Positions 884 through 62,263 of a stretch of DNA of 64,000 nucleotides are shown piece after piece. Made by a program: the position numbers and the translations under genes. The notes below the pieces were generated by a model. That model saw nothing but the letters and a program-made list of their open reading frames with translations. It searched no databases and was not told the DNA's origin. How positions within the stretch are numbered: position 1 is the stretch's first letter; each line of letters begins with the position of its first letter. The stretch is from Candidatus Daviesbacteria bacterium (GTDB lineage Bacteria; Patescibacteriota; Microgenomatia; Daviesbacterales; UBA10151): positions 67,590 to 131,589 of the forward strand of contig JACPDA010000005.1 in the NCBI GenBank assembly GCA_016184225.1. The letters are read 5' to 3'.

Positions 884-1726
884 ATGAAAGTATCCGGTAA
901 GGTAGTTGCAGATGCTATTGCAAAAAAACTTCACGAAAAAGTAAAGAAATTAACAGTTCAACCCACCTTTGCCATAATTTTGGCTGGTAGTGATCCGGCT
1001 TCCCGAATTTATGTAAACTTTAAAATAAAGCGAGCTAATGAAATTGGAGTTAAGGTTAAATCCTTTGAATTTGCCGAAAACCAATTTGATAAGTGTGTAA
1101 AGACTATTGAGGAGCTAAATTCAGACAAAAATGTCCATGGAATGATTGTACAATACCCGATATATAAAAGTTGGAATTTTGATGAGTTAATCGGGAAAGT
1201 TGATCCTAAAAAAGATGTAGATGGGTTTAGCAAGGAGTCTCCTTACGGCAAGGCAACTGCTTTGGCTGTTTGGGAAATGCTGACGGCTTTTGCCTATTTG
1301 GAAGGTTTTTCAAAGACAGAAGATTTTCTAAGGGATAAAAAAATGGTTGTCCTTGGAAGAGGTAAAACAGCGGGAGGACCCATTAGAGAGCTTTTAGAAA
1401 AACATGGATTTGAAGTGACGGTGGTTGCCCGGGATACGGAAAATCCAAATGAAAAGATTAGAAGTTCTGATGTAGTAATTTCTGCAACCGGGGTGAAAAA
1501 TATTGTTAACGGATCAAATGTTAAAAAAGGAGCGTATATTGTAGGAGTTGGTGTAGGTAGGGAGACAGTTGAGGGAAGACATAAAATATATGGGGATATT
1601 AATGAAGAGGAAATCAGTAAAATAGCCAAGCTGTATTGTCCAACTATTGGAGGAATAGGACCTTTAACAATTGTCAGCTTGTTGGAGAATGTGATAGAAT
1701 CAGCGTATCGCTCTCTGTCATCCTGA
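884..1726 (+). CDS. folD: Bifunctional methylene-THF dehydrogenase/methenyl-THF cyclohydrolase
   Basis: 280 aa with FolD-like N-terminal and NAD(P)-binding regions (ILAGSDPASRIYV, VVLGRGKTAGGP). The last codons and the stop are supplied by a dispersed repeat copy. Confidence 0.85.
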   Translation: MKVSGKVVADAIAKKLHEKVKKLTVQPTFAIILAGSDPASRIYVNFKIKRANEIGVKVKSFEFAENQFDKCVKTIEELNSDKNVHGMIVQYPIYKSWNFDELIGKVDPKKDVDGFSKESPYGKATALAVWEMLTAFAYLEGFSKTEDFLRDKKMVVLGRGKTAGGPIRELLEKHGFEVTVVARDTENPNEKIRSSDVVISATGVKNIVNGSNVKKGAYIVGVGVGRETVEGRHKIYGDINEEEISKIAKLYCPTIGGIGPLTIVSLLENVIESAYRSLSS

Positions 1727-1741
1727 GCGAAGCGAAGGATC
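1717..1741. repeat. Dispersed repeat family 1 (core TCCTGAGCGAAG[T]CGAAGGA), copy at the folD 3' end
   Basis: gtcatcctgagcgaagcgaaggatc; supplies the last folD codons (SS*). Confidence 0.7.
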
Positions 1742-1746
1742 TAATT

Positions 1747-2025
1747 ATGGGTTTAATGGACAATCTAAAACAACTGGGGGATCTTAAGAAAATGAGGGAT
1801 CAGGCCATGGAAGTGCAAAAAAGATTGGCCGGGATTAAGATTACTGTGGAACACAAAGGTGTGGTGGTGGTAATGACTGCCGATCAGAAGATAGTTTCTA
1901 TCTCAGGTGACAATGACCTAAATAAAGTTGCAGAAGCCGTTAATGAGGCTTTAAAACAATCCCAAAAAGTGGCAGCAGACGAGATGAAAGGTTTAATGGG
2001 CGGTATGGGAATCCCAGGGATGTGA
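1747..2025 (+). CDS. ybaB: YbaB/EbfC family nucleoid-associated protein
   Basis: About 93 aa (MGLMDNLKQL…GMGIPGM) with the conserved ybaB-recR pairing. The upstream extension of the tracked ORF overlaps folD in another frame and is discounted. Confidence 0.75.
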   Translation: MGLMDNLKQLGDLKKMRDQAMEVQKRLAGIKITVEHKGVVVVMTADQKIVSISGDNDLNKVAEAVNEALKQSQKVAADEMKGLMGGMGIPGM

Positions 2026-2040
2026 CCCGCCTTTGGCGAG

Positions 2041-2066
2041 GTCATCCTGAGCGAAGTCGAAGGATC
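2041..2066. repeat. Family 1 copy, intergenic ybaB-recR
   Basis: gtcatcctgagcgaagtcgaaggatc. Confidence 0.7.
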
Positions 2067-11039: not shown

Positions 11040-13858
11040 TACAGAAGATAAGAGTGCAAACAATTGGACAACCCAATATTAAAGTTTACCGGTTGGAAGG
11101 GATATCAGTAAAAGATGCTAAAATTCTGGCTGAAAAATTATTGTCAGAGCGAATTAATCAAAAATACACAATAAATCAGCCTATTGCCCGCGGCAAAGTT
11201 ATTGAAATCGCCTATAAACCTGGTGTGATGAATCCGGAGGTGGTATCGATAACCAAAGCTGCATCTGATTTGGGGATTAAACTTATTTCCTGCGACAGTT
11301 CCATTGAATACCTCAGTCAAAAAGTTTCCTTTAATCCTTTAACAGAACACATAATTACAGAAGAACCAAAAACTCTGATTTTAAAAGCTAAACCCGGAAA
11401 GACACAAATTATTTCTATAAGAAATTTGACTGACCAGCAGTTGTTGGATTTATCCAAAGATACGCTTTTCCTTAATTTGGAAGAGATGAAAAAAGTCCAG
11501 AAGTATTTCCAAAAAATAAAAAGAGATCCGTCAGATTTGGAGCTTGAGACTTTAGCCCAAACTTGGAGTGAGCATTCCGGCCATAAAACTTTTAAAGCGG
11601 ATTTAATAATAGACGGTAAGGAAAAAGAACCCCTGATGACTCGGCTGAAAAAGGAAGCCTTAAAACATGATAAAAATATTGTTTCTGCCTTTGTTGATAA
11701 TTCCGGTGTGATGGATTTTTACGACGGTTTTGGGATTTGCGGTAAAGTAGAAACTCATAATGCCCCTTCAGCAATCGAACCTTACGGCGGGGCCATGACT
11801 GGTTCAGGCGGAGTATTCCGGGATATTGCTGCTACTGGTAAAGGCGCAAAAAACATTGCCTCAACAGATGTCTTTTGTTTTGCTCCATTGGATTTATCAG
11901 CTAATGAATTGCCCATGGGGTGTTTGCCGCCTGAATATTTACTAAAAAGGGTTGTGGCCGGTGTCAGGGATTATGGTAATAGGATGGGAATTCCCACTAA
12001 TAATGGCTCAGTTCATTTTCACAAAGATTTCCGGGCCAAGCCTTCGGTGATTGTAGGGGCCTTTGGAATTGTTCCCAAAAAATATGCCAAAAAGGAAAAG
12101 CCAAAAGTGGAAGATCTGATAATTACAATCGGCGGCAGAACAGGTAGGGATGGAATTCATGGGGCTACATTTTCTTCCGGAGAAATGACTGAGAAAACAA
12201 TTGAAGTGCATTCTTCCGCAGTCCAAATTGGCAATGCTATTGAAGAAAAAAGGATGTTTGATGCGCTATTGGAGGCGCGTGATCAGGATTTAATAAGGTT
12301 GGTGCAGGATTGCGGCGGAGGAGGATTTTCCTCAGCAATTGGGGAAATAGGTGAGGAGTTGGGGGTCTTGATTGACCTTAAAAATGCTCCTTTAAAATAT
12401 CAGGGTTTAGCTCCTTGGGAAATTTGGATGTCAGAGTCACAAGAGCGGATGATTGTGGTTTTAGAAAAAATAAACCTGAAGAAATTTGAGGATATTTGTA
12501 AAAAGTACAATGTGGAATTTGCAGTTTTGGGAAAGTTTGATGGAAGTAAGAAATTGAATGTGACTTTTGAAGGTAAAGTAGCTGGTGATTTAGACATGCA
12601 ATTTCTTCATCATGGGTTACCAAAAAGGATTCTAATAGCAAAAAAATCAAATCGTCATTCTGGGGAGCAAAGCGACTCCAGAATCAAAAAAGGATCCTGG
12701 ACAAGCCAGGATGACAGAGTGGAACAGCCTAAGACTGAAAGAGAATGGATAAAGGTTTTAGAAAAAGTGCTAGCTCATGGAAATGTTAATTCCAAAGAAC
12801 CAATTGTTAGATTGTATGATCATTCAGTTCAAGGGACAAATGATCTGCAGTCTTATTCGGGAACTAATTTAGATGGGCCAAATGATTCACCGGTTCTCCG
12901 CCCTTTTCTTGATAAGAAGTATGGCATGGTAATTTCCCATGGATTAAATCCTGTCTTAAATAATATAGATCCGTATTGGGGGAGCATCTGGGCGGCAACA
13001 GAAGCACTCTCCAATTTTGTAGCAGTCGGAGGGAATTACAAAGAAGCTTGCTTAATTAATAATTATATTTGGCCATTTCCGGATGAGCAGTCTCTTTGGT
13101 CTTTAGATAGGTCGGTTGATGCGGTTGTAGATTTTATGAAAACTTTCAAGATTCCTGTAATTTCTGGGAAAGACAGTTTGTCCTCGTCTTACAGAAGCAA
13201 AGATGGAAAAGTAATTAAAATCCCACCTGTACTTTGTATCTCCGTTTTGGGAAAAATTCCTGATGCCGGAAAAACTGTTACTGCAGATTTTAAACGCAGT
13301 GGTTCAACAATTGTTTTAGTAGGTAAAATGGATAAGAATCTTGGAGGCTCTGTTTATTATCAAGTACTTTACCCTGAGCGAGCGGAGCAAGTCGAAGGGC
13401 CAAAAGTTGATTTGAAGATTTTGCCAAAGACTTTTGATGCAATTTGCAAAGGGATACAGACTGGTAAGATTCTATCTTCCCATGATGTTTCGGAAGGTGG
13501 CGTAATTGGGGCTATTTTTGAAATGTGTGTAGGCGGAGGAATGGGAGCGACCATTCACCTCGGAGGAGTAACTTCGTCACACCTCCGAGGTGACCGAATG
13601 GGCTCCTCGGAGGTGGAATTCTTGTTTAATGAAACAGCAGGGTGTTTTATTGTGGAGGTGGAAAATGAAAGTATGGCAAAACAACTTTTTAAGAATGTGC
13701 CATTTAGGATTTTAGGTAAAACAAAAGAAGGAAATAAAATGGAAATATATGGAAATAAGACAAGCTTGCCGCTTCGCGATAAAAAGAAATTATTTGTTGT
13801 GGATGTAAATGATTTGAAGAAAGTTTGGCAGGAACCAATGAGGAGGTTATTCCCATGA
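11036..13858 (+). CDS. purL: FGAM synthase synthetase subunit PurL with a PurS-like N-terminal domain
   Basis: The AIRS-like PurL core (HSGHKTFKA…NAPSAIEPYGGAMTG) is preceded by about 170 aa resembling the PurS / large-PurL N-terminus (YKPGVMNPEVVSITKAASDLGI). It contains an in-frame repeat-element insert (RHSGEQSDSRIKKGSWTSQDD). Confidence 0.85.
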   Translation: MIQKIRVQTIGQPNIKVYRLEGISVKDAKILAEKLLSERINQKYTINQPIARGKVIEIAYKPGVMNPEVVSITKAASDLGIKLISCDSSIEYLSQKVSFNPLTEHIITEEPKTLILKAKPGKTQIISIRNLTDQQLLDLSKDTLFLNLEEMKKVQKYFQKIKRDPSDLELETLAQTWSEHSGHKTFKADLIIDGKEKEPLMTRLKKEALKHDKNIVSAFVDNSGVMDFYDGFGICGKVETHNAPSAIEPYGGAMTGSGGVFRDIAATGKGAKNIASTDVFCFAPLDLSANELPMGCLPPEYLLKRVVAGVRDYGNRMGIPTNNGSVHFHKDFRAKPSVIVGAFGIVPKKYAKKEKPKVEDLIITIGGRTGRDGIHGATFSSGEMTEKTIEVHSSAVQIGNAIEEKRMFDALLEARDQDLIRLVQDCGGGGFSSAIGEIGEELGVLIDLKNAPLKYQGLAPWEIWMSESQERMIVVLEKINLKKFEDICKKYNVEFAVLGKFDGSKKLNVTFEGKVAGDLDMQFLHHGLPKRILIAKKSNRHSGEQSDSRIKKGSWTSQDDRVEQPKTEREWIKVLEKVLAHGNVNSKEPIVRLYDHSVQGTNDLQSYSGTNLDGPNDSPVLRPFLDKKYGMVISHGLNPVLNNIDPYWGSIWAATEALSNFVAVGGNYKEACLINNYIWPFPDEQSLWSLDRSVDAVVDFMKTFKIPVISGKDSLSSSYRSKDGKVIKIPPVLCISVLGKIPDAGKTVTADFKRSGSTIVLVGKMDKNLGGSVYYQVLYPERAEQVEGPKVDLKILPKTFDAICKGIQTGKILSSHDVSEGGVIGAIFEMCVGGGMGATIHLGGVTSSHLRGDRMGSSEVEFLFNETAGCFIVEVENESMAKQLFKNVPFRILGKTKEGNKMEIYGNKTSLPLRDKKKLFVVDVNDLKKVWQEPMRRLFP
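12654..12715. repeat. Dispersed palindromic repeat family 2 (GTCATTCTGG…GACTCCAGAATC…GATYCTGGACAAGCCAGRATGAC), in-frame in purL
   Basis: gtcattctggggagcaaagcgactccagaatcaaaaaaggatcctggacaagccaggatgac. Confidence 0.75.
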
Positions 13859-16781: not shown

Positions 16782-18164
<1,383 letters not shown>

Positions 18165-20272: not shown

Positions 20273-21802
20273 ATGGAAAAATATGCCTTACTCTCGGTAT
20301 ATAATAAGGAAGGTATATCTGACTTTGCAAAGGTATTAGAGAAGTTGGGATACAAAATTATCTCCACTGGCGGTACTTATGAACAGTTAAAAAAGAACGG
20401 TATTGATGTTACCCCAATTGATGAGATAACCGGTAACCCCAGAGACTCCTTTGACGGCCGGATGAAAACTATTAGTTTTCAAATTGAGTCGGGAATTTTG
20501 TTTGACCGGAGAAATCCTAAGCATGTAGAAGAGGCCCAAAAATTGGGGGTACCGCAAATAAACATTGTGATATGCAACCTTTATCCGTTTGAAGAAAAGC
20601 CTGGCATTGAAACAATCGATGTCGGAGGGCCAACCATGATTAGGGCTGCAGCTAAAAATCATGTAAATGTTTTGGTGGTGGTTAGTCCTGCTGATTATGG
20701 TATGGTGGCAGATGCTTTAGAAAAGGGGAAAGTTACAGAAAAATTAAGGAAAGAATTGGCTGCTAAAGCTTTTTATCATCTATCTTTTTACGATTCTCAA
20801 ATCGGTAACTTTTTCAGTAGCGAGAGGTTTCCCAAAGAACTCACTATACCTCTTAGAAAAACTAATGTTCTCCGCTATGGGGAAAATCCCCATCAAGAAG
20901 GAGCCCTCTATCTTATGCCAAAAACCAATTCTCCTTTTGCAAAATTAAAACACCTTTGGGGAAGGGAACTTTCCGGCACCAACATTGGTGATATTCAAGC
21001 AGGACTGGAAACTGTCAGACAATTTAAGGAACCGGCAGCCGCAGTTATAAAACATTTAAGCCCTTGCGGAATAGCTACCGGCAAAGATGCTTTCGAGGCT
21101 CTGTACCGGGCAACCGAAGCAGACCCTGTTTCCGCATTTGGAGGGGTAGTGGTATTAAATAAGCCCATGGATTTAGAGGCTGCAAAGAATATTGCCACGT
21201 TTAAAAATGAAAGAGAAGGAAATACTGATATTGTGGCAGTTCCATCAATTTCGCCTGATGCTTTGGAATTACTGAAAAAAGTCAGAAAGAGTATGGGAGT
21301 TTATACATTTGGTGAAATTCCAAGGGAAAGAACTGAAAGATGGGACTTAAAATATTTTGCCGGAGCAGTATTACTTCAGGATTTTGATGATGATGTTGAC
21401 AAAAGTTTTAAGGCCTGGAAAGTTGTAACTAGAAATAAACCGACAGAGAAACAACTTGAGCAAATGAAATTTGGTTTTAAAGCAGTGAAAGCTGTCAGGT
21501 CTAATGCCGTGATAGTAATTGATAAAGATATTCCGATGACCCGCGGGATTGGTTCCGGACAAACTTCACGCGTAGGTGCTACCAAGATTGCCCTGGAGCA
21601 AGCAGGAAAATTAGCAAAAGGTGGTATCCTAATAAGTGACAGCTTTTTTCCGTTTGAAGATTCAGTGGAAATGGCAGCAAAATACGGAATCGGAGCCATT
21701 CTGGAGCAAGGGGGTTCTGTTAATGATCAGGCATCTGTGACGGCCGCAGATAAGGCAGGTATCCCGATGGTATTTACCGGAAGGAGGGCATTCAGACACT
21801 AA
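20273..21802 (+). CDS. purH: Bifunctional AICAR transformylase / IMP cyclohydrolase
   Basis: MGS-like N-domain (ALLSVYNKEGI) plus an AICARFT C-domain, about 509 aa. Confidence 0.85.
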   Translation: MEKYALLSVYNKEGISDFAKVLEKLGYKIISTGGTYEQLKKNGIDVTPIDEITGNPRDSFDGRMKTISFQIESGILFDRRNPKHVEEAQKLGVPQINIVICNLYPFEEKPGIETIDVGGPTMIRAAAKNHVNVLVVVSPADYGMVADALEKGKVTEKLRKELAAKAFYHLSFYDSQIGNFFSSERFPKELTIPLRKTNVLRYGENPHQEGALYLMPKTNSPFAKLKHLWGRELSGTNIGDIQAGLETVRQFKEPAAAVIKHLSPCGIATGKDAFEALYRATEADPVSAFGGVVVLNKPMDLEAAKNIATFKNEREGNTDIVAVPSISPDALELLKKVRKSMGVYTFGEIPRERTERWDLKYFAGAVLLQDFDDDVDKSFKAWKVVTRNKPTEKQLEQMKFGFKAVKAVRSNAVIVIDKDIPMTRGIGSGQTSRVGATKIALEQAGKLAKGGILISDSFFPFEDSVEMAAKYGIGAILEQGGSVNDQASVTAADKAGIPMVFTGRRAFRH

Positions 21803-23214
21803 TGAAAGTGCAAAGTGCAAAGTGCAAAGTGCAAAGTTATGATAGTTACCAATCACCATTTTCTTGGAGATATGGATCAGAAAAAATGAGAGAGATATTC
21901 TCAGAAGAGAAGAAATATAAACTTTGGAGAAAGATTTGGGTAGCTCTTGCAAAAGCACAAGCAAAAGAAGGTTTGGTATCAAAAGAAGAACTGGCAGACC
22001 TGGAAAAAAATCAAGACAACATAGATATCGAACGGATTTGGGAAATTGAAAAAGATACCTGGCATGACACCGTAGCGGCAATAAAAGAATTTGCTGAGAA
22101 AGCCAAAATCGGCGGCGGCAAAATACACCTCGGTGCCACTTCCATGGATATTTCCGATAATGCTGAAACTATTAGGATTAGGGAAGCCTTGGATATAGTT
22201 GAAAAAAGACTCGTAGCTTTGCTACTCGCGCTTTCTTCGAAAGTAAAAAAATATGCTAACTTTCCCTGTATGGGGTATACCCATCTGCAGCCGGCAGAAC
22301 CAACAACCTTAGGATATAGATTTGCTTTCTACGCCCAGGATCTTTTAATGGATCTGGAACTTTTAAGATTTGTTAAGAAGAATTTAAAGAGTAAAGGTTT
22401 AAAGGGCGCAGTCGGAACATCAGCCAGTTATGTTAAATTGTTGGATAGGAAAAAAGCAGAAGAGATGGAAGTTAGGATTTTAAGGGAGTTAGGGGTAGAA
22501 GCATTTGAAATTACCAATCAAACTGCGTCCAGAAAGATAGAATTTTGGGTAGCCAGCTTACTCGCGGGAGTTGCACAGTCCTTGAATAAATTTGCCTTTG
22601 ATTTAAGGATTATGCAGTCACCCGGGTTTGGTGAATGGCAGGAGCCGTTTGGAGTTTTGCAGGTTGGTTCATCCGCAATGCCTTTTAAGAAAAATCCTAT
22701 TAAAGCAGAACAAATTTGTTCTTTGTCCAGGCTGGTGGTGAATTTATCAAAGACTGCCTGGGATAATGCTTCCATGATGTTACTTGAGCGGACTCTGGAT
22801 GATTCGGCTAACAGAAGAGTAGTAATTCCGGAAATGTTTTTGGCAATTGATGAAATGCTAAATTCTACCGCAAATATTGTTGAAGGATTAATTGTAAATG
22901 ACAAACAAATAATGAGAAATTTGGAAAAATATTGGCCTTTTTCTGCAACAGAAGGAATTATTCTGGAAGCAGTAAAACAGGGGGCAGACAGACAAAAAAT
23001 GCATGAGGCGCTCAGAGAAATTGCCATGAGAGCGTGGAAGTCTATCCAAGAAGGGAATCCAAATCCAATACAGGATTTATTAGAAGAAAATTCCACTATT
23101 AAACAGTACTTAAAACCAATAGAAATAATAGAAGTTCTGGATGCAAAAAATCATGTTGGTAATGCAAAAGAAAAAGCTTTGACTTTGGCGGATCAAATTG
23201 ATAGATTGACATAA
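21802..23214 (+). CDS. purB: Adenylosuccinate lyase
   Basis: Fumarate-lyase family with a PurB N-terminus (SWRYGSEKMREIF). The first codons are a heptanucleotide tandem repeat (MKVQSAKCKVQS). Confidence 0.85.
   Translation: MKVQSAKCKVQSYDSYQSPFSWRYGSEKMREIFSEEKKYKLWRKIWVALAKAQAKEGLVSKEELADLEKNQDNIDIERIWEIEKDTWHDTVAAIKEFAEKAKIGGGKIHLGATSMDISDNAETIRIREALDIVEKRLVALLLALSSKVKKYANFPCMGYTHLQPAEPTTLGYRFAFYAQDLLMDLELLRFVKKNLKSKGLKGAVGTSASYVKLLDRKKAEEMEVRILRELGVEAFEITNQTASRKIEFWVASLLAGVAQSLNKFAFDLRIMQSPGFGEWQEPFGVLQVGSSAMPFKKNPIKAEQICSLSRLVVNLSKTAWDNASMMLLERTLDDSANRRVVIPEMFLAIDEMLNSTANIVEGLIVNDKQIMRNLEKYWPFSATEGIILEAVKQGADRQKMHEALREIAMRAWKSIQEGNPNPIQDLLEENSTIKQYLKPIEIIEVLDAKNHVGNAKEKALTLADQIDRLT
21804..21838 (+). 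repeat. Heptanucleotide tandem repeat (CAAAGTG x about 5) within the first codons of purB
   Basis: gaaagtgcaaagtgcaaagtgcaaagtgcaaagtt. Confidence 0.8.
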
Positions 23215-24955: not shown

Positions 24956-25456
24956 ATGATAAAGAAAAATTCATTAAGTTATTTTTTGCTTCTTGGTTTG
25001 GAGAAATCGATTCAGAGTGGCGTTTTGCTAATTGATTTTGCCTACAATTCCCACTGGTATGTTTATCCCGGGCGAGACCCAAGAGATATAAATTACGGCG
25101 CTCTTTATCAGGCAGTTAGGGATTTGCGTGAGAAAGGCTTTATTGAAACCGAAAAAGACGGCAGAAAAATTATGTTGAAATTAACAGATAAAGGTAGGGA
25201 AGAGGCAATAGTAAAAAAGCTCTTAGCAGAAGAGAAATGGGATAGGAAGTGGAGAATTGTTATTTTCGATGTTCCGGAAAAGCACCGGAAATTAAGAAAA
25301 ATCTTGCGGAGTAAACTTAGGGAGTGGGAATTTGAGCCTTGGCAGAAAAGTGTTTGGGCAGGTAAAAAGGATGTAACAAGTCCATTGCGAAATTTTATTA
25401 AAGAGGTTGGTTTATCTGATTGGGTAAGGGTGGTAGTCGGTGCTGATGTAGCTTAG
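24956..25456 (+). CDS. Short PaaX-family-like transcriptional regulator (wHTH plus WDGKW-motif domain)
   Basis: Matches the PaaX N-terminus/middle region (…KWDRKWRIVIFDVPEKHRKLRKILRSKL…QKSVWAG). Paralog of 59013..59507. Confidence 0.6.
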   Translation: MIKKNSLSYFLLLGLEKSIQSGVLLIDFAYNSHWYVYPGRDPRDINYGALYQAVRDLREKGFIETEKDGRKIMLKLTDKGREEAIVKKLLAEEKWDRKWRIVIFDVPEKHRKLRKILRSKLREWEFEPWQKSVWAGKKDVTSPLRNFIKEVGLSDWVRVVVGADVA

Positions 25457-26374: not shown

Positions 26375-27352
26375 ATGGCAACGACTAATGGTTTTGTACT
26401 TTTAACAGGGACTGCTAATTTAAAACTTGCCAAAGATATTGCTAAAGTTTTGGGAAAAGATGCTGATGAAACCGTGAGCGTTTTTGCTGACGGCGAAAAG
26501 AGAATTGTTATCCCCGAGAATTTAAGGAAAAGAGATGTTTTTATAATCCAACCCACTTGTCCGCCGGTTGATGCAAACATTATGGAACTGCTTTTGATAA
26601 TAGACGCTGCAAAAAGATCATCCGCCTCAGAAGTAACAGCCATAATTCCTTATTTTGGATACTCCAGGCAGGACCGCAAAGATCGACCGCGAGTTCCCAT
26701 ATCAGCGTCTTTGGTTGCCAGGTTAATTGAATTTTCCGGGGCAGACAGAATTTTGACGGTTGATATCCACTCGGAGCAAGAGCCCGGATTTGTGGAAATC
26801 CCTTGGGATAATTTATACAGCAGTTACTCTTTTCTTCCCCAGCTAAAAAAATATTTCGGATCAAACTTAATTGTTGCCTCGCCTGATAAAGGCGGAGTTT
26901 TAAAAGCTGCATTTTATGCGGATCTGCTTGACGCTGATGGAGTGGCGATTGTTTTTAAGGAAAGGGATGTGATGAAAAAGAATGAAAGCAAGGCTTTGGA
27001 TATGATTGGTGACGTTAAGGGCAAAGACGTATTAATTGTGGATGATATGATTGATACGGCCGGAACGATTTGTGAAGCTGCTAAATTGATTAAGGGAAAA
27101 GGGGCAAAAAGCGTATCTGCTGCTGCTGCTCATGGGCTTTTTTCCGACCCTGCCATAGAACGGATTAACGACTCACCCCTAGATAAGATTTTTATCACAG
27201 ATACAGTGCCGCTTAGGAAGGAAGTTTTGGAGAGCCAAAAGTTTATTGTAATATCAGTGGCTAACCTTTTGGCAGAAGCTATAAACTGTATTCACAATGG
27301 TGATTCAATTTCTGAAAAATTAATCCCCAAAACTCACGAAGAAAGAAACTAG
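26375..27352 (+). CDS. prs: Ribose-phosphate pyrophosphokinase
   Basis: PRPP-binding motif (VLIVDDMIDTAGT) and the Prs N-domain. Confidence 0.9.
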   Translation: MATTNGFVLLTGTANLKLAKDIAKVLGKDADETVSVFADGEKRIVIPENLRKRDVFIIQPTCPPVDANIMELLLIIDAAKRSSASEVTAIIPYFGYSRQDRKDRPRVPISASLVARLIEFSGADRILTVDIHSEQEPGFVEIPWDNLYSSYSFLPQLKKYFGSNLIVASPDKGGVLKAAFYADLLDADGVAIVFKERDVMKKNESKALDMIGDVKGKDVLIVDDMIDTAGTICEAAKLIKGKGAKSVSAAAAHGLFSDPAIERINDSPLDKIFITDTVPLRKEVLESQKFIVISVANLLAEAINCIHNGDSISEKLIPKTHEERN

Positions 27353-27372
27353 CCCTTCGACTACGCTCAGGG
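27353..27372. repeat. Family 1 variant core between convergent prs and purM
   Basis: cccttcgactacgctcaggg. Confidence 0.55.
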
Positions 27373-27374
27373 TT

Positions 27375-28478
27375 TTAACGGACCTCTAAAGTTTCTGCCC
27401 CAAAACTGATTTTGATCGGTTCAATAATAACCTCTTTTGGTCCTTCCTGAACTACTCCGGCATTCCAGGATTTTAAGTTATGTTTTTCTGCTATGGCTTG
27501 GGCTTTTTCTACTTGGGTTACTGGCAAATATATCGCAAACCCGGCACCCATATTAAAGTTGCCGTACATATCTTTGTCACTGCTGCCCGATTGATTTTGG
27601 ATAAACTTAAAAGTTTGGGGAATTGGGGGGATTTGGGTAAGGAGGTAAGTAAAAGCTCTGTTTGCCCGCATTAGTTTTCTCCAACCATGGCCGGTAATGT
27701 TGACCAGGTAGTGTATTTCCACTCCGGCCTCAAATAAGTCTTTGATTAAATTTACATATATATAGGTAGGTGTAAGTAAGAAATCTCCGTATATTGTTCC
27801 GTCAGGTAATTTAGTGGTATAGCCTTCCGGTAGTTTTTCCGCAATAGCCCTGGCCAATGATAATCCATTAGCATGAACACCGCTGCTCTCTATTAGTAAA
27901 ATTGCATCGCCTGCCGTAAGTTTGTCTCCGAGAGTCAGTCTTTCTTTTGGTTTGATAATTCCGATACAAGCACCAGCCAGGTCTATTGTGTTTGGATTGA
28001 TGATTCCGGCCAGTCCCGGAGTTTCACCGCCGCCCCAGGTGGCCCCTGCCAGCTGGCAGGCTTTGGTCCAGCCTTCTACTAAAGCTTTGGAGCGATCACT
28101 GTTTGTGAACCACTCCGGACCTCCTGACCCGAAGTAAGCATTTATCACTTGTGGCATGGCTCCAACAGTAATGATATCGTTTACTATCATGGCAATGGTG
28201 TCTTGGGCAATGGCGCCATAATAACTTTGGCCGGTGGTTTTTTCCATTTCATCAGCCACTAAATTCTTCGTCCCCAAACCTTCAATAACAAATGCCCGGT
28301 ATGAATCTTCTTCTTCCCAGACAAAAGCTGATTCGCCCCGGCTTTCTGCTACTTCTTTTGCTCCAAAATTAAGCAGGTTTTGTGAAGTTTGTTTACCCAT
28401 TTGTTGGGCTAGTTTTTTAAGGGGATCCATGACATTGTAATTAACACCGGTGGAAGAGTAAGTGATTGTCTTGCTCAT
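27375..28478 (-). CDS. purM: AIR synthetase (phosphoribosylformylglycinamidine cyclo-ligase)
   Basis: AIRS N/C domains (GLGTK, ITGHG, FNMGAGF), 367 aa. Confidence 0.8.
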   Translation of the reverse strand: MSKTITYSSTGVNYNVMDPLKKLAQQMGKQTSQNLLNFGAKEVAESRGESAFVWEEEDSYRAFVIEGLGTKNLVADEMEKTTGQSYYGAIAQDTIAMIVNDIITVGAMPQVINAYFGSGGPEWFTNSDRSKALVEGWTKACQLAGATWGGGETPGLAGIINPNTIDLAGACIGIIKPKERLTLGDKLTAGDAILLIESSGVHANGLSLARAIAEKLPEGYTTKLPDGTIYGDFLLTPTYIYVNLIKDLFEAGVEIHYLVNITGHGWRKLMRANRAFTYLLTQIPPIPQTFKFIQNQSGSSDKDMYGNFNMGAGFAIYLPVTQVEKAQAIAEKHNLKSWNAGVVQEGPKEVIIEPIKISFGAETLEVR

Positions 28479-38977: not shown

Positions 38978-40378
38978 ATGAAACTTAAGAATTTCATTTT
39001 TCTTATTGCAACATTCATATCATTTTTGATAGGGGCCCAGGTATCTCCGGCAGTTTTTGGTGCAACGCCCACACAGTATGGCTTTACATTTCCAGTTGGC
39101 GAGCTGAATAACTGTGCAACTGTGGCAGAATGCGGAAATTACTGTGAGAAAGACGGTAATCTTCCGGCGTGCATGGCATTTGTGAAAAAGTACAAAATTA
39201 CCAAAGATGATGTATTAACATTCACTATTGATGAACTGGGTAATTGTCAGATGGGTTCTGATTGCCGCAATTTTTGCAACCGTGACGAAAATATTACCAA
39301 ATGCATTGATTTTGCCGATAAATATGACCTGCTTTCTACCAGCAATCTTGAACTGGCGCAGAAATTTGCCAAAGCAGTTGGTTCCGGAGGTGGGCCGGGG
39401 GGCTGCAGGAGCCTTGAGCAGTGTGACCGCTATTGTGACATAAGTGAACATACCAACGAATGTCTTGACTATGTGGGCAAGAAGGATTTATTACCACGTA
39501 ATGAATTGGCACAAGTTCGCAAAGTGGCAGAGGGTTTTAGACAGGGAATAGAAACCCCGGGTAAGTGTCGTGATTACACGGAGTGCAATGTTTATTGTAC
39601 TGATTCTAGCCACTCTAACGAGTGCGGAGTTTATGCTGTAAAGGTTGGTTTTATCACAACCGAGGAGGCAGAACAGGCCAAAAAATATGGCGGAACCGGT
39701 CCTGGAGGTTGTAAATCAGAGCAAGAATGTAGCGCTTTTTGTCAACAGCCATATAATCAGAGAGTCTGCTTAAGTTATGCAAACGAACATAATATAAAAG
39801 TAGATTTTAAAGGACCCGGCGGTTGTAGTGATATTTCATCCTGCACATCTTACTGTACTAAAAGTAAGTCTGATCCAGAGTGTCAAAAGTACGCTAGTCA
39901 ATACCAAGGATTTAAAGGGCCTGGCGGGTGTGAGGATGAAGCCTCCTGCAAAACTTATTGTCAGGCTAATCCTGCTGATGCGGAATGTAAACAATATGCC
40001 GGTCAATATGGCGGATTTTCCGGACCTGGAGGGTGTAGTGATGTAGGATCTTGTACTGCCTATTGTAAAGATCACTATCAAGATCAAGAATGTCAAAAAT
40101 ACTCAAGCCAGTATGGTGGAGGATTTTCCGGGCCTGGCGGGTGTAATTCAGAAAGCTCATGTAAAGCTTACTGCACTGCCAACTCTGGGGATGCAGCCTG
40201 TAAACAATATGCCGGTCAATATGGCGGATTTTCCGGACCTGGTGGGTGTACGGATGAGGCTTCTTGTACCTCTTACTGTAAGTCAAACCCCAAAGATTCA
40301 GCTTGTGCCCCATATGTTGGCCAGTATAAAGATCAATACCAACAGCAAAATCAGCAACAACAACCTCAACCACAATAG
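38978..40378 (+). CDS. Secreted cysteine-rich tandem-module protein (about 10 modules of GPGGC-x5-C-x3-C-x8-C…QYGGF, Q-rich tail)
   Basis: Signal peptide; about 30-aa modules with 4 Cys each repeated head-to-tail, ending QQQNQQQQPQPQ. Confidence 0.6.
   Translation: MKLKNFIFLIATFISFLIGAQVSPAVFGATPTQYGFTFPVGELNNCATVAECGNYCEKDGNLPACMAFVKKYKITKDDVLTFTIDELGNCQMGSDCRNFCNRDENITKCIDFADKYDLLSTSNLELAQKFAKAVGSGGGPGGCRSLEQCDRYCDISEHTNECLDYVGKKDLLPRNELAQVRKVAEGFRQGIETPGKCRDYTECNVYCTDSSHSNECGVYAVKVGFITTEEAEQAKKYGGTGPGGCKSEQECSAFCQQPYNQRVCLSYANEHNIKVDFKGPGGCSDISSCTSYCTKSKSDPECQKYASQYQGFKGPGGCEDEASCKTYCQANPADAECKQYAGQYGGFSGPGGCSDVGSCTAYCKDHYQDQECQKYSSQYGGGFSGPGGCNSESSCKAYCTANSGDAACKQYAGQYGGFSGPGGCTDEASCTSYCKSNPKDSACAPYVGQYKDQYQQQNQQQQPQPQ
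39380..40335 (+). repeat. Tandem roughly 90-bp coding repeats inside the Cys-rich protein gene
   Basis: Recurrent ggacctggnggntg…caatatggcggattttccgg blocks seen directly. Confidence 0.6.
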
Positions 40379-43020: not shown

Positions 43021-43581
43021 ATGGCCTCAAGATCTTGGAATAGAGTAGAACTAATAGGTAATTTAACCAGGGACCCGGAACTTCGATATACCCCTAATGG
43101 TGCTGCTGTTTGTACTTTTGGCATGGCCACCAACCGCACTTATGTGACTGAGGGCGAGAGAAAAGAAGAAGCAGATTTTCACAGATTAGTGGCCTGGAAT
43201 AAACTGGCTGAACTTTGTAATCAACTTTTGAAAAAGGGCAACCGGGTTTTTGTTTCCGGAAGGCTGCAGACCCGGTCCTGGGAAGGCCAAGATGGTCAAA
43301 CCAGAAACGTTACGGAGATTGTGATAGAGGATATGATTTTGCTGACTCCTAAAAGTAACGGAGATTATACACCGGTACCGGAAGATGTGGGGGTAGAGCC
43401 GGTTAAAGTAAAAGAGTCGAAGGAGTCAGAGGAGCCGGAAGAATCAAAGGCAGAGAAAAAGACAGAAATTCAAAAAGAAGAGCCTAAAGAAAAAGAAGAA
43501 CCAAAGACAGAATCCTTCGACTCCGCTCAGGACAAGAAAGCCGCCCCCAAAGAAGAAGTAGAGGATGATCTTCCATTCTAA
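43021..43581 (+). CDS. ssb: Single-stranded DNA-binding protein
   Basis: OB fold (VELIGNLTRDPELRYTPNGAAV) and an acidic tail ending DDLPF. The tail includes a dispersed-repeat core (ESFDSAQDK). Confidence 0.9.
   Translation: MASRSWNRVELIGNLTRDPELRYTPNGAAVCTFGMATNRTYVTEGERKEEADFHRLVAWNKLAELCNQLLKKGNRVFVSGRLQTRSWEGQDGQTRNVTEIVIEDMILLTPKSNGDYTPVPEDVGVEPVKVKESKESEEPEESKAEKKTEIQKEEPKEKEEPKTESFDSAQDKKAAPKEEVEDDLPF
43514..43533. repeat. Family 1 core in-frame in the ssb C-terminal tail
   Basis: tccttcgactccgctcagga, translated SFDSAQD. Confidence 0.6.
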
Positions 43582-58902: not shown

Positions 58903-58974
58903 AATAAAAGTACTTGAGGTATTATATCAAGTTTAACTTGATGAAAAAAGGATAAAGAGGAAATTAAAGTCTGT

Positions 58975-59004
58975 ACAAATGTCCTCCGATCGTGGTACAT
59001 TTGT
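58975..59004. promoter_or_regulatory. Palindrome ACAAATGT-CCTCCGATCGTGGT-ACATTTGT overlapping the promoter (TGtGATAAT) of PaaX-like gene 2
   Basis: 8-bp arms around a CGATCG core; the ATG follows within about 9 nt. Confidence 0.5.
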
Positions 59005-59012
59005 GATAATAT

Positions 59013-59507
59013 ATGGCACGACCACCAAGCAAGCGAAAGGTTCTAACAGATTTAGTTCTTTTAGCTTTAGAGAAATCAATTGACGGGTATGTAGCGTTTG
59101 AAGATTTCATTTACAATCCACTGCTAGAAAGACCTGTTAAAAAATCAGTCCTTTCTCAGGTTATAAAAAGACTTCGGGATCAAGGTTTAGTGGAGTTTAT
59201 TAGTGATAATGAGTTAATTTTAAGATTGACTGATTCTGGTAGAGATAAAGCGCTATGGAAGAAGATGGCTCTCGGAGATGAGAAATGGGATGGGAAATGG
59301 CGGCTGGTAATATGGGATGTGCCGGAAAAAAGGAGATTGGCTAGGGATTTACTAAGGTTTAAACTTAAACAGTTAGGTTTTAAACAGTGGCAAAAAAGTG
59401 TTTGGGCTTCAAAGATAAACTGTACTAAGTTATTACGAGATTTTATCAAGCAAGTAGGAATAGAGGATTGGGTGATGGTGATTGAATCCGATAACGTAGG
59501 AGTTTAA
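59013..59507 (+). CDS. Short PaaX-family-like transcriptional regulator (paralog of 24956..25456)
   Basis: KWDGKWRLVIWDVPEKRRLARDLL…QKSVWASK; N-terminal wHTH. Confidence 0.6.
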   Translation: MARPPSKRKVLTDLVLLALEKSIDGYVAFEDFIYNPLLERPVKKSVLSQVIKRLRDQGLVEFISDNELILRLTDSGRDKALWKKMALGDEKWDGKWRLVIWDVPEKRRLARDLLRFKLKQLGFKQWQKSVWASKINCTKLLRDFIKQVGIEDWVMVIESDNVGV

Positions 59508-59508
59508 A

Positions 59509-59538
59509 CATTTGTCCTCCGATCGTGGTACAAATGTG
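59509..59538. promoter_or_regulatory. Near-identical palindrome ACATTTGT-CCTCCGATCGTGGT-ACAAATGT immediately downstream of PaaX-like gene 2
   Basis: Same 14-nt core in direct orientation with the arms swapped. Confidence 0.5.
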
Positions 59539-59590
59539 ACAAACAATGCAATCTAGACTTTTTTAACCGATTTATGTATAAGTTACTTCT

Positions 59591-62263
59591 ATGAATAAAT
59601 CTACAAAAAATGAAGTCAGGCTTCCGGTGCATGTTAAGCCTGAGCGGTACAGGATTATGCTCCGGCCGGATCTGGAGGGGTTTACATTTTACGGCGAAGA
59701 AACAATTTTTTTGGTTTTAGAAAAGCCCACCAAACAAATTACCCTGCATGCTGCTGAGCTGGAGATAGAATCGGCAGAATTTATACATGGTAACAAAGAG
59801 GTATGGGCTGGGAGGATTAATTATGATAAAAAAGCGGAAACTGCTACATTTACTTTTGCTAAAAATATTCAAAAAGGCAAAGGACAATTAAAGCTTGCTT
59901 TTAAGGGAATCTTGAATGATAAAATGCGGGGCTTTTACCGTTCCCGCTATGAAGTGAGTGGAGTATCAAAGCATCTGGCTACTACCCAGTTTGAATCAAC
60001 TGATGCCAGGAGGGCTTTTCCCAGCTTTGATGAACCCGCTCAAAAGGCTGTTTTCGATGTGACTTTAGTGGTTCCTGCCAAGACTGTGGCTATCTCCAAC
60101 ACCATTGAATCTAACATCCGAGAACATGAAAGCGGTTACAAGGTAATAGAGTTTGCCCCAACCCCGAAAATGTCTACTTATCTTTTAGCCTTTATTGTGG
60201 GGGAGTTTGAGAGTGTAGAAGTGCAAAGTGCAAAGGGCAAAGTGATAAGGGTTTTTACCACACCGGGTAAAAAAGAACAAGCCAGATTTGCCCTTGATGT
60301 AGCCGGAAAATGCTTGGATTTCTATGAACAATACTTTGGTATCTCTTACCCTTTGCCGGTGTTGGATCTTATTGCAATACCTGATTTTGCTGCCGGGGCC
60401 ATGGAAAACTGGGGAGCAGTGACATATCGCGAATCTTTGCTGTTAATTGATGAGGAGGCTTCCTCCACTGCCAATAAACAATGGGTGGCTTTAGTGATTG
60501 CCCATGAGCTGGCTCACCAGTGGTTTGGCAATTTAGTCACTATGGAGTGGTGGACCCACCTTTGGTTAAATGAAGGTTTTGCCTCATTTATTGAATTCTT
60601 GGCTATTGACCATATTTTCCCGGAGTGGGATATCTGGACCCAATTTGTAGGGAGCGAAATGGGTGAAGCTTTCTCGCTGGACGGCTTAAAAAACACCCAC
60701 CCGATTGAGGTGGAGGTGGGCCATCCGGCCGAGATTTCCGAGATTTTTGATAAGGTCAGCTATTCCAAAGGAGCCTCAATTCTGCGTATGCTTATGTCTT
60801 ATCTGGGGGAAAAAGATTTTCAAAAAGGGTTGCAATTTTATCTTAAAAAACATGCTTATGGAAATGCGGAGACCCAGGATTTGTGGAAAGCATTGGAAGA
60901 AGTTTCCGGGAAACCTGTTGGCAAGCTGATGAAAAACTGGACCTCAAAGCCCGGACATCCGGTGATAAGGTTACAGTCAACAGGCAGCAGGCTACAGTTA
61001 ACACAAAGCAGGTTTTTCTCCTCTCCAATTTCTAAAAGAAAGACGAAAGATGGTGCTGTCTGGAGTATTCCTATCACTGTCATTCTGGGGAGTTCTGCAA
61101 GGCAGAACGACTCCAGAATCGATTCTGGACAAGCCAGAATGACTAATCTATTAATGAATAAAAAATCCATGACTATTTCAGGAATTAAAGATAACGAGTG
61201 GATTAAATTAAATGCCGGGGAGGCGTCATTAGTTAGAGTTGATTATCCGCAGGAATATCTCAAGAAGCTGGAAGAGGCGGTTAAGAATGGAAAACTGCCT
61301 GCAGTGGACAGGTTGGGCCTAATCAGAGATTCTTTCTCTTTGGCAGAGTCAGGTCAAAGCCCAACCACTTTATCTTTGGAGCTGACTCAAAGTTACATGG
61401 GTGAAGAAGATTATACTGTTTGGGCTGAGCTGACGGGAAAACTGCTGCAGCTTGATTCTCTTTTAGCTCTGGAACCATTTTATCCGGATTTCAAAAAATA
61501 CGGCATAAAGATTTATCAAGATATAGGGGGTAAGCTAGGCTGGAAAGCAAGAAAAGGAGAAAAGCATACAGATTCCCTGCTGCGGGGTATGGTTTTAAAT
61601 ATGCTGGGAGGGTTTGGAGATGGGGAGACTATAAAGGTGGCTCAGGAATTATTTAGAGCTTATGTAGTACGTCATTCTGGGGAGCGCAGCGACTCCAGAA
61701 TCAAAGGGGGGGATTCTGGACAAGCCAGAATGACAAGTAGTCACGGCATTCATCCTGATTTAAAGGGAGTTGTTTACAATTTGGTGGCGGAAAACGGTGG
61801 AAAAAAAGAATTCGATACTTTGATGAAGATGTACAAGCAAGAGGAAAATCAACAGGAAAAAGATCGGATTGGCCGGGCTTTGGGGAAGTTTAAAATTAAA
61901 GCCCTTCTTTCTAAAACCCTGGATTTTTCTATTTCCAAGCATGTGAGATTCCAAAACAGTCTGCAAATTATTGCAGCTGTTTGGGCTAATCCGGTCGGCC
62001 GTTATCTGGCCTGGGAGTTTGTAAAAAAGAATTGGAAATTGTTAAAAGATAGGTATGCAGGGGGCCATTATTTTACCAAAGTTTTTGGACCGGCCGGAAG
62101 CTTTACCAAAAAAGTTGATGCCAAAGATATTGAATCCTTTGTCAAGAAAAATCCTGTCCCGGAAGCCAAAAGAACCATTGCCCAAGCCTTGGAACAGATT
62201 TATTCCAATGCAGAGTGGCTAAAAAGGGATAGACAGAAAATCAAAGATTTTCTGTTAAGATAA
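59591..62263 (+). CDS. pepN: Aminopeptidase N (M1 family)
   Basis: GAMEN and HELAHQW…E zinc motifs. Carries two in-frame palindromic repeat inserts (SSARQNDSRIDSGQARMT; RHSGERSDSRIKGGDSGQARMTS). Confidence 0.9.
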   Translation: MNKSTKNEVRLPVHVKPERYRIMLRPDLEGFTFYGEETIFLVLEKPTKQITLHAAELEIESAEFIHGNKEVWAGRINYDKKAETATFTFAKNIQKGKGQLKLAFKGILNDKMRGFYRSRYEVSGVSKHLATTQFESTDARRAFPSFDEPAQKAVFDVTLVVPAKTVAISNTIESNIREHESGYKVIEFAPTPKMSTYLLAFIVGEFESVEVQSAKGKVIRVFTTPGKKEQARFALDVAGKCLDFYEQYFGISYPLPVLDLIAIPDFAAGAMENWGAVTYRESLLLIDEEASSTANKQWVALVIAHELAHQWFGNLVTMEWWTHLWLNEGFASFIEFLAIDHIFPEWDIWTQFVGSEMGEAFSLDGLKNTHPIEVEVGHPAEISEIFDKVSYSKGASILRMLMSYLGEKDFQKGLQFYLKKHAYGNAETQDLWKALEEVSGKPVGKLMKNWTSKPGHPVIRLQSTGSRLQLTQSRFFSSPISKRKTKDGAVWSIPITVILGSSARQNDSRIDSGQARMTNLLMNKKSMTISGIKDNEWIKLNAGEASLVRVDYPQEYLKKLEEAVKNGKLPAVDRLGLIRDSFSLAESGQSPTTLSLELTQSYMGEEDYTVWAELTGKLLQLDSLLALEPFYPDFKKYGIKIYQDIGGKLGWKARKGEKHTDSLLRGMVLNMLGGFGDGETIKVAQELFRAYVVRHSGERSDSRIKGGDSGQARMTSSHGIHPDLKGVVYNLVAENGGKKEFDTLMKMYKQEENQQEKDRIGRALGKFKIKALLSKTLDFSISKHVRFQNSLQIIAAVWANPVGRYLAWEFVKKNWKLLKDRYAGGHYFTKVFGPAGSFTKKVDAKDIESFVKKNPVPEAKRTIAQALEQIYSNAEWLKRDRQKIKDFLLR
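61079..61143. repeat. Family 2 copy, in-frame in pepN (variant left arm)
   Basis: gtcattctggggagttctgcaaggcagaacgactccagaatcgattctggacaagccagaatgac. Confidence 0.75.
61671..61734. repeat. Family 2 copy, in-frame in pepN (near-perfect palindrome)
   Basis: gtcattctggggagcgcagcgactccagaatcaaagggggggattctggacaagccagaatgac. Confidence 0.8.

Follow-up and report, generated by a model that had tools for sequence, protein, structure and literature searches.

A GA-bracketed hairpin repeat at the folD-ybaB-recR locus of a Candidatus Daviesbacteria bacterium, probably a variant of the CGTC-REP/Ssn-related-motif class

Introduction

What are the two short, almost identical sequences that sit at the folD-ybaB and ybaB-recR boundaries of a Candidatus Daviesbacteria genome, and what have they done to the genes around them? 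We examined a stretch of 64,000 nucleotides (nt) of contig JACPDA010000005.1 (GenBank assembly GCA_016184225.1, positions 67,590 to 131,589 of the forward strand), hereafter the window. The sequence GTCATCCTGAGCGAAG(T)CGAAGGATC occurs twice on its + strand, at 1717-1741 and 2041-2066, as seen by reading the sequence and by pattern searches. We conclude that the two copies are probably solo members of the class of CGTC-tagged repetitive extragenic palindromes (REPs) and Ssn-related motifs (SRMs), in a variant form, and that they belong to a dispersed family linked to a GIY-YIG nuclease.

CGTC-tagged REPs were described by Di Nocera, De Gregorio and Rocco in 2013 as having a CGTC or TGTC tag (CCTC being allowed), stems that open with A-T and T-A pairs, and a short 3' tail (PMC3733652). 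The described families have continuous stems of 8-9 bp with loops of 4-5 nt, come from five phyla, mostly from Alphaproteobacteria, and include the Rickettsia palindromic elements RPE-4 and RPE-6 (PMC3733652). They often lie at or overlap the 3' ends of open reading frames (ORFs), are enriched just downstream of ORFs and are sometimes found in frame inside genes; no dedicated transposase is known for them, and no REP-associated tyrosine transposase (RAYT) was found flanked by them (PMC3733652). Chenal et al. (2025) characterized the Neisseria NTS (CGTCATTCCCGCGMAVGCGGGAATCYRG), the oriented form of dRS3. Its binding partner is SsnA, a single-domain GIY-YIG nuclease of 94 amino acids (aa), which recognizes the NTS solely in single-stranded DNA, makes its cut a few bases 5' of the tag and binds no RNA (PMC11893778). 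Cleavage depends most on the three bases ahead of the NTS palindrome and binding on the C behind it, and across phyla ssn genes have such motifs beside them, typically an inverted pair with the gene in between (PMC11893778).

Results

Two copies of one tagged hairpin

The two copies, and the parts of the first, are as follows.

1717-1741, + strand: repeat copy 1, GTCATCCTGAGCGAAGCGAAGGATC, from the sequence and a pattern search, with its structure taken from family covariation
1717-1719, 1720-1724, 1725-1726 and 1727-1733, + strand: 5' side of copy 1, being tag GTC, stem ATCCT, GA and inner hairpin GCGAAGC, respectively
1734-1735, 1736-1740 and 1741, + strand: 3' side of copy 1, being GA, stem AGGAT and C, respectively
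2041-2066, + strand: repeat copy 2, GTCATCCTGAGCGAAGTCGAAGGATC, which differs from copy 1 by an added T in the inner hairpin

That inserted T is the sole difference between the copies. In 100 dinucleotide-preserving shuffles of the window, no match was expected for copy 1, for copy 2 or for a looser pattern spanning both, which confirms the homology that an earlier, sequence-only reading of this DNA had proposed. Both copies share one layout: a 5' GTC tag, a 5-bp stem opening with A-T and T-A, GA...GA around an inner hairpin, and a C directly past the palindrome. The unpaired GTC abuts the palindrome on its 5' side, within TGTC at 1716-1719 in copy 1 and GGTC at 2040-2043 in copy 2, and the cytosine immediately 3' of the palindrome is C1741 in the one and C2066 in the other. 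The 5-bp stem is followed by a G-A/A-G interruption and then by 2 bp and a 3-nt loop. We named this form "type II"; its outer stem has 5 bp, and a variable inner hairpin stands between the GA...GA brackets.

The structure was examined in 46 distinct 28-nt members of the family. Standard pairs filled 98.8% of cells, and compensatory double changes were present at six of the seven pairs. The covariation score was 0.554 against 0.231 in shuffles, none of 500 shuffles reached 0.554, and the signal was lost when the partner columns were slid. The pattern by which these members had been selected included the outer stem, tag, GA brackets and 3' C and left out the two inner pairs, which also covary (GC/AU/CG and CG/UA). 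For a non-circular test of the tag, every perfect 5-bp GA...GA hairpin was collected whatever its flanks, with AG...AG hairpins as controls. GTC stood just upstream of 215 of the 506 GA...GA hairpins compared with 2 of the 218 controls, and C stood just downstream of 283 of the 506. These alignments point to a hairpin-forming palindrome that has been maintained by selection.

At the Rfam gathering threshold, the complete window gave one tRNA and nothing else. A literature search with the sequence string of the repeat gave unrelated primer matches only, and one on palindromic elements in the candidate phyla radiation (CPR) gave nothing specific. Copies 1 and 2 are probably solo members of a dispersed, strand-specific family of hairpin repeats.

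Tagged hairpins accompany GIY-YIG nuclease genes

A scan of species-representative genomes yielded 42 orthologous loci, whose taxon labels, where given, are Candidatus Daviesbacteria, Microgenomates or Patescibacteria; loci are cited below by their L numbers. In L002, L020, L026 and L035, the ybaB-recR spacer holds a reverse-strand GIY-YIG ORF of 91-96 aa between inverted tagged hairpins, and these are the only such ORFs in approximately 430 kb of Daviesbacteria DNA. All four match Pfam PF01541 (E values from 1e-14 to 3e-17), with no specific NCBIfam family and only a weak UPF0213 match in the PDB. Set against these spacers, copy 2 is a solo copy, standing where related species have an SRM-ssn-SRM cassette.

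We then fetched 80 metagenome loci with the four GIY-YIG proteins alone, a selection blind to the DNA motif. A tagged hairpin lay no more than 150 nt from the GIY-YIG gene in 71 of the 80 loci, and on both sides of it in 51. Hairpin density was 7.9 per kb near the gene versus 1.0 per kb further off, the tags pointing mostly outward, and the exact 25-mer of the window recurred in four of these loci. The type II (GA-bracket) pattern had 229 matches spread over 63 of the 80 loci and a further 19 in Daviesbacteria loci, with about three expected in shuffles of all sequence combined; in the window, it matched exactly the two copies.

The association extends to named replicons. On Sinorhizobium meliloti pSymB, a GIY-YIG gene (47% identical) is flanked by the canonical CGTC REP CGTCATCCTCGGGCTTGACCCGAGGATCCA, and on a Planktothrix plasmid another (59% identical) is flanked by type II copies. 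Canonical NTS-like copies, TGTCATTCCCGCGAAAGCGGGAATC, are also present in Daviesbacteria (L024 and L120). The GA-bracketed motif GTCATYCTGAGCGNAGCGAAGRATC was found in at least 120 IMG/VR stretches (L134-L253), from contigs classed as viral.

At L074, L077, L096 and L133 (the last being the Planktothrix plasmid, 720-800), we also observed tandem 5' half-motifs, TGTCATTCTGAG plus about 9 nt, repeated two to three times directly upstream of a full motif next to the GIY-YIG genes. Such arrays may be footprints of repeated cutting or insertion.

The ybaB-recR spacer

Across Daviesbacteria, the ybaB-recR spacer acts as a general hot spot for insertions. In the window, the region contains, in addition to copy 2:

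2023-2044, + strand: extra hairpin TGACCCGCC-TTT-GGCGAGGTCA, in which the ybaB stop plus C (TGAC) pairs with GTCA of copy 2
2069-2077, + strand: extended -10-like box TGTTAAAAT, a putative promoter element 9 nt before the recR ATG and within 20 nt after copy 2
2087-2683, + strand: recR (ORF list)

With ybaB ending at 2025 and recR starting at 2087, copy 2 does lie in the spacer, as the sequence-only reading had it, and occupies 26 of the 61 bases rather than filling the whole. The 15 nt ahead of it, together with the ybaB stop, make up the 2023-2044 hairpin, whose DNA fold (-8.6 kcal/mol, z -2.4) is more stable than that of the core. A tagged hairpin starts right after the ybaB TGA in seven species, the window included, and the TGAC...GTCA hairpin is kept by compensatory changes in six of the seven, that of L026 being imperfect. 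On the other strand, the conserved YbaB C-terminal codons GGAATCCCAGGGATGTGAC (window 2007-2026) read GTCACATCCCTGGGATTCC, which resembles the head of an SRM; in all seven repeat-bearing species the insert starts right after that TGA, head-to-head with GTCACATCCCTGGGATTCC.

In many species the spacer is only about 16 nt long and carries a TAnAAT box, which is conserved in orthologues at the same distance from recR. A simple -35/-10 promoter scan did not report TGTTAAAAT.

Copies at such gene boundaries had been put forward as terminators or processing sites. A search for intrinsic terminators over 800-2800 found no terminator-like site, and no T-run follows the hairpins, the sequences after them being CTAATTATG and CTATGTTAAAA. 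We therefore assign them no terminator role, and the core folds no better than shuffled sequence, so this suggestion was not borne out.

Unrelated small ORFs of about 100-300 aa were also seen in the spacer (window equivalent 2026-2086) of L004, L021-L023, L025, L037, L038 and L041-L043.

The folD-ybaB junction and the end of FolD

Copy 1 lies across the end of one gene and just ahead of the next:

884-1726, + strand: folD (ORF list; Pfam THF_DHG_CYH families on identical proteins)
1734-1739, + strand: Shine-Dalgarno-like GAAGGA, in the 3' arm of copy 1 and 7 nt before the ybaB ATG, a candidate ribosome-binding site
1747-2025, + strand: ybaB, with its true start at 1747 fixed by orthologues

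The last folD codons, TCA TCC TGA at 1718-1726, fall within copy 1, and 5 nt separate the end of the copy (1741) from the ybaB ATG (1747); on both points the ORF list and the sequence agree with what had been read from the sequence alone, namely that copy 1 supplies the last two folD codons and the stop. The longer ORF at 1636..2025 translates the element as VILSEAKDL. Because the ybaB ATG directly follows the folD stop in repeat-free orthologues, we place the start of ybaB at 1747; by this comparison, the longer ORF is evidently an over-extended ybaB and its N-terminal extension spurious, as had been suspected.

The junction is repeat-free in most species, the folD stop lying 0-5 nt ahead of the ybaB ATG or overlapping it, with AAGGAG inside the folD 3' end. 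A near-identical junction repeat is shared by the window, L046 and L025, despite FolD proteins that are only 64-83% identical, with a triloop that differs (GAA, AAA and GGA); L002, L024, L035 and L041 have junction repeats with other stem variants. In L045, whose FolD is 86% identical, exactly 27 nt have been deleted between AGCG direct repeats, the 3' half GCGAAGGATCTAATT is retained and FolD ends in ...ESARRI*. Empty, filled and half-deleted states are thus all found at this one junction. Independent assemblies of the same organism (Logan contigs L127-L129) end 16 nt past the folD stop, inside the repeat, which fits the breaking of contigs at a multi-copy repeat.

FolD has many homologues at 60-86% identity, and we compared the C-termini of 120 of them. 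Eighteen have xSS* at the end, as GTCATCCTGA is translated; in seven, the reading frame runs on across related hairpins (giving, for instance, ...MSPPRRRGSN); the remainder end in ...SAKRSTK*, ...SAKKARS* and similar. Relatives that have the element show the ending ...YRSLSS*, and those that lack it ...SAKRSTK*. A simple insertion was considered and rejected, as the DNA alignment shows the native 22-nt tail replaced and not split. Together, the C-termini and this alignment uphold the proposal that the element remodelled the end of folD: the repeat has rewritten both the FolD C-terminus and its stop codon.

Copy 1 would now also serve ybaB, with a ribosome-binding site supplied in its 3' arm and the folD stop in its 5' arm, and its GAAGGA would replace the native AAGGAG inside folD of the repeat-free species. 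With stop and GAAGGA in opposite arms, folD-ybaB translational coupling would be kept, and this may explain the strong conservation of copy 1.

Other copies and repeats in the window

Further members and relatives of the family were found elsewhere in the window, many of them in frame inside genes:

12653-12715, both orientations: inverted pair of tagged hairpins, 63 nt, CGTCATTCTGGGG...CCAGAATC and then GGATCCTGG...CCAGGATGAC, in frame in purL
13372-13399, + strand: tagless relative CCCTGAGCGAGCGGAGCAAGTCGAAGGG, in frame in purL
17005-17051, - strand: nested copy in purA, encoding a 17-residue in-frame insert
27352-27373, - strand: tagless relative ACCCTGAGCGTAGTCGAAGGGC, between the convergent ORFs 26375..27352 and 27375..28478
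43512-43533, - strand: degenerate copy GTCCTGAGCGGAGTCGAAGGAT, antisense in the ssb C-terminal tail (ESFDSAQDKK)
61079-61143, both orientations: two tagged hairpins in inverted arrangement, in frame within an aminopeptidase N-like ORF (pepN)
61671-61734, both orientations: second inverted pair in the same ORF, in frame

The purA and ssb copies bear out the earlier observation that the core recurs in frame in purA and in the tail of ssb. A CGTC tag is present on copies at 12653, 61670 and 17052, and the purL inverted pair has a DNA fold z-score of -3.5. Most PurA homologues are 425 aa long and have no insert; in about 12 of 120, repeats of different types form in-frame inserts, all at one site, among them SVIPAKAGIH, SVIARSEATKQS and the insert of the window, which forms a gap against PDB 3hid.

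Repeats of other kinds were also noted. Short periodic repeats of 5-7 nt, of the (CAAAGTG)n, AGGTTAC-like and TAGAGTC-like types, lie at 21797-21847, 60217-60253, 48885-48913/49119-49147 and 44023-44083/50621-50653, and similar arrays bracket small reverse-strand ORFs in inverted orientation in L016, L036, L009, L027 and L020; arrays and ORFs together may constitute a second kind of repeat-bracketed cassette. The window also has two paralogous ORFs of about 165 aa (24956-25456 and 59013-59507), the latter bracketed by a 42-nt repeat (58968-59009 and 59501-59542) with the palindrome GTACAAATGT...ACATTTGT. Three diverged copies of a unit of about 162 nt at 39802-40281, within ORF 38978..40378, give rise to an internally repetitive protein.

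Discussion

Comparison with known systems

The likeness to the SRM/NTS system is close in layout. GTC stands right before a palindrome starting with AT and C right after it; the repeats are dispersed and multi-copy; inverted copies flank a gene for a single-domain GIY-YIG protein of about 94 aa, here in relatives and metagenomes rather than in the window; and the canonical Daviesbacteria copies in L024 and L120 are almost identical to the NTS consensus. The window copies differ, however, in their 5-bp outer stem and GA...GA brackets, with which they fail the degenerate SRM pattern. Their host is a CPR bacterium, and many of the window copies are in frame inside genes, whereas 2% of NTS are intragenic in Neisseria meningitidis.

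With CGTC REPs, the family shares a (C/T)GTC tag (TGTC in copy 1; copy 2 has GGTC), a stem opening with A-T and then T-A, a 3' tail of few bases (CTA/CTC against CCA), dimers arranged head-to-head or inverted, a preference for ORF 3' ends with coding overlap, in-frame intragenic copies and the lack of a RAYT association. It departs from them in a stem of 5 bp plus an interruption instead of a continuous 8-9 bp with a 4-5-nt loop, and neither the GA-bracketed two-tier hairpin nor a CPR host is part of the 2013 description (PMC3733652). As with the Rickettsia palindromic elements, housekeeping enzymes tolerate small palindromic repeats as peptides inserted in frame, here in purA, purL, pepN and the ssb tail, although RPE-1 is far longer, at over 100 bp, and copies 1 and 2 lie at gene boundaries and not inside genes. 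GTAG REP/REPIN-RAYT systems likewise combine tagged hairpins, inverted pairing and an enzyme gene that lies between its own repeats in a REPtron-like layout; the tag in the window is GTC(A) rather than GTAG, the bracketed enzyme is a GIY-YIG protein and not an HUH tyrosine transposase, and mobilization by Ssn is only putative.

Weighing the explanations

Membership of the CGTC-REP/SRM class, as solo copies in variant form, is the explanation that we consider probable. It draws on the hairpin architecture with its covariation, the link to GIY-YIG genes, the patchy presence at orthologous sites and the rewriting of the FolD C-terminus. On this explanation, an Ssn-type enzyme of this organism would, by analogy, bind or cut the copies, which would have spread as non-autonomous partners of an SRM-ssn-SRM cassette.

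Several results weigh against it. Thermodynamically, nothing sets the core hairpin apart as DNA (-2.7 kcal/mol, z -0.4), and as RNA copy 1 does no better than shuffles (z +0.3); because both z-scores are near zero, the case for the structure rests on covariation. The nuclease family is assigned at the level of Pfam PF01541, with membership of CDD cd10448 putative. The published SRM pattern, HGTCWYN(0-2)YYVSBRHN(0-5)WNVSBRGN(0-2)RNCYNB, does recognize the NTS consensus and the S. meliloti repeat; it has no match in the window and one in the 80 GIY-YIG loci, and copy 2 has a G before GTC where the pattern demands A, C or T. As the pattern fails on the copies and on nearly all 80 loci, we take the window form to be a variant class missed by the published search. 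A hidden Markov model of the Daviesbacteria GIY-YIG ORFs found no ssn gene in the 64-kb window, even at E <= 10. When we started from the motif, no Ssn-like ORF was found nearby in the at least 120 IMG/VR stretches (1.04 Mb; a few of the stretches share a contig). The local linkage therefore runs only from gene to motif, and most copies, being far from any nuclease gene, are dispersed and solo. Lastly, the junction copy is nearly unchanged across species whose FolD is 64-83% identical, a near-constancy that hints at a local function beyond selfish persistence.

A rival account holds that the copies are primarily RNA elements of the folD-ybaB-recR transcript, acting in ybaB-folD coupling, in stabilizing or processing of the mRNA, or in termination. 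Each copy stands at the 3' end of a gene and reads in the sense direction; one arm of copy 1 contains the folD stop and the opposite arm AAGGA, which resembles a ribosome-binding site and lies 7 nt ahead of the ybaB ATG; only the triloop of the junction copy changes between species; and CGTC REPs in general are enriched just downstream of ORFs (PMC3733652). There is, however, no T-run and no predicted terminator, the RNA fold of copy 1 does not exceed shuffles, the same core lies antisense in ssb and inside purA, purL and pepN, and the family tracks a DNA nuclease gene, SsnA itself having no RNA binding (PMC11893778). We regard a primary role in RNA as improbable; a local RNA side effect would be compatible with the nuclease-linked explanation, yet it leaves the family unexplained.

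That many unrelated small ORFs occupy the ybaB-recR spacer in different species, and that different repeat types recur at the same PurA and FolD sites, would also fit attachment or target sites of some other mobile element, such as an IS110-type insertion sequence or a filamentous prophage, as with Neisseria dRS3, the GIY-YIG gene being one passenger among others. No integrase or IS110-type gene was seen beside the copies examined, though, and the GIY-YIG association is strong and two-sided, which makes this account very unlikely. Mobilization as a classical REP/REPIN by a RAYT, a tyrosine transposase of the IS200/IS605 type, is more doubtful still and strikes us as extremely unlikely: small tagged hairpins, often in inverted pairs, dispersed and at gene ends, are what one sees here, but the tag is (C/T)GTC and not GTAG, no RAYT was found flanked by CGTC repeats (PMC3733652), and the gene between inverted copies encodes a GIY-YIG nuclease and not a Y1 transposase. 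Chance or base composition, or selection on a shared peptide VILSEAKDL, has nothing but the shortness of the element to commend it and is refuted by the shuffle controls, in which no match is expected; the copies, moreover, lie in different frames, on both strands and in non-coding DNA, and number in the hundreds in unrelated metagenomes, so we give this account practically no weight.

Within the nuclease-linked explanation, a more specific proposal is that the repeats mark sites of targeted SRM-ssn-SRM cassette insertion, by way of a nick placed immediately 5' of a sequence that resembles the tag. Turnover of repeat types at a single site, as in PurA and at the FolD stop, and the GTCACATCCCTGGGATTCC head at the ybaB stop speak for it. 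We put it forward tentatively, as rather unlikely on present evidence.

Implications

These results connect an anonymous CPR repeat to the recently characterized Ssn/SRM enzyme-motif system, and they show that a large variant class, spread across phyla, escapes the published search pattern; it was met here in Daviesbacteria, a cyanobacterial plasmid, many metagenomes and at least 120 IMG/VR stretches. For annotation, the repeat accounts for spurious ORF extensions, odd termini or inserts in FolD and PurA, and contig breaks. New Ssn/motif pairs are of practical interest as cutters of single-stranded DNA, and the orthologous empty, solo and cassette states of a single spacer are material for testing the mobility of Ssn elements. 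A Rickettsia-type phenomenon now reaches the CPR as well, with copies lying in frame in essential enzymes of a reduced genome. If targeted insertion were true, the movement of Ssn elements would be seen in nature for the first time at these loci, and a minimal CPR genome would be shown to have recruited repeats as gene parts, namely a stop codon, peptide inserts and a ribosome-binding site.

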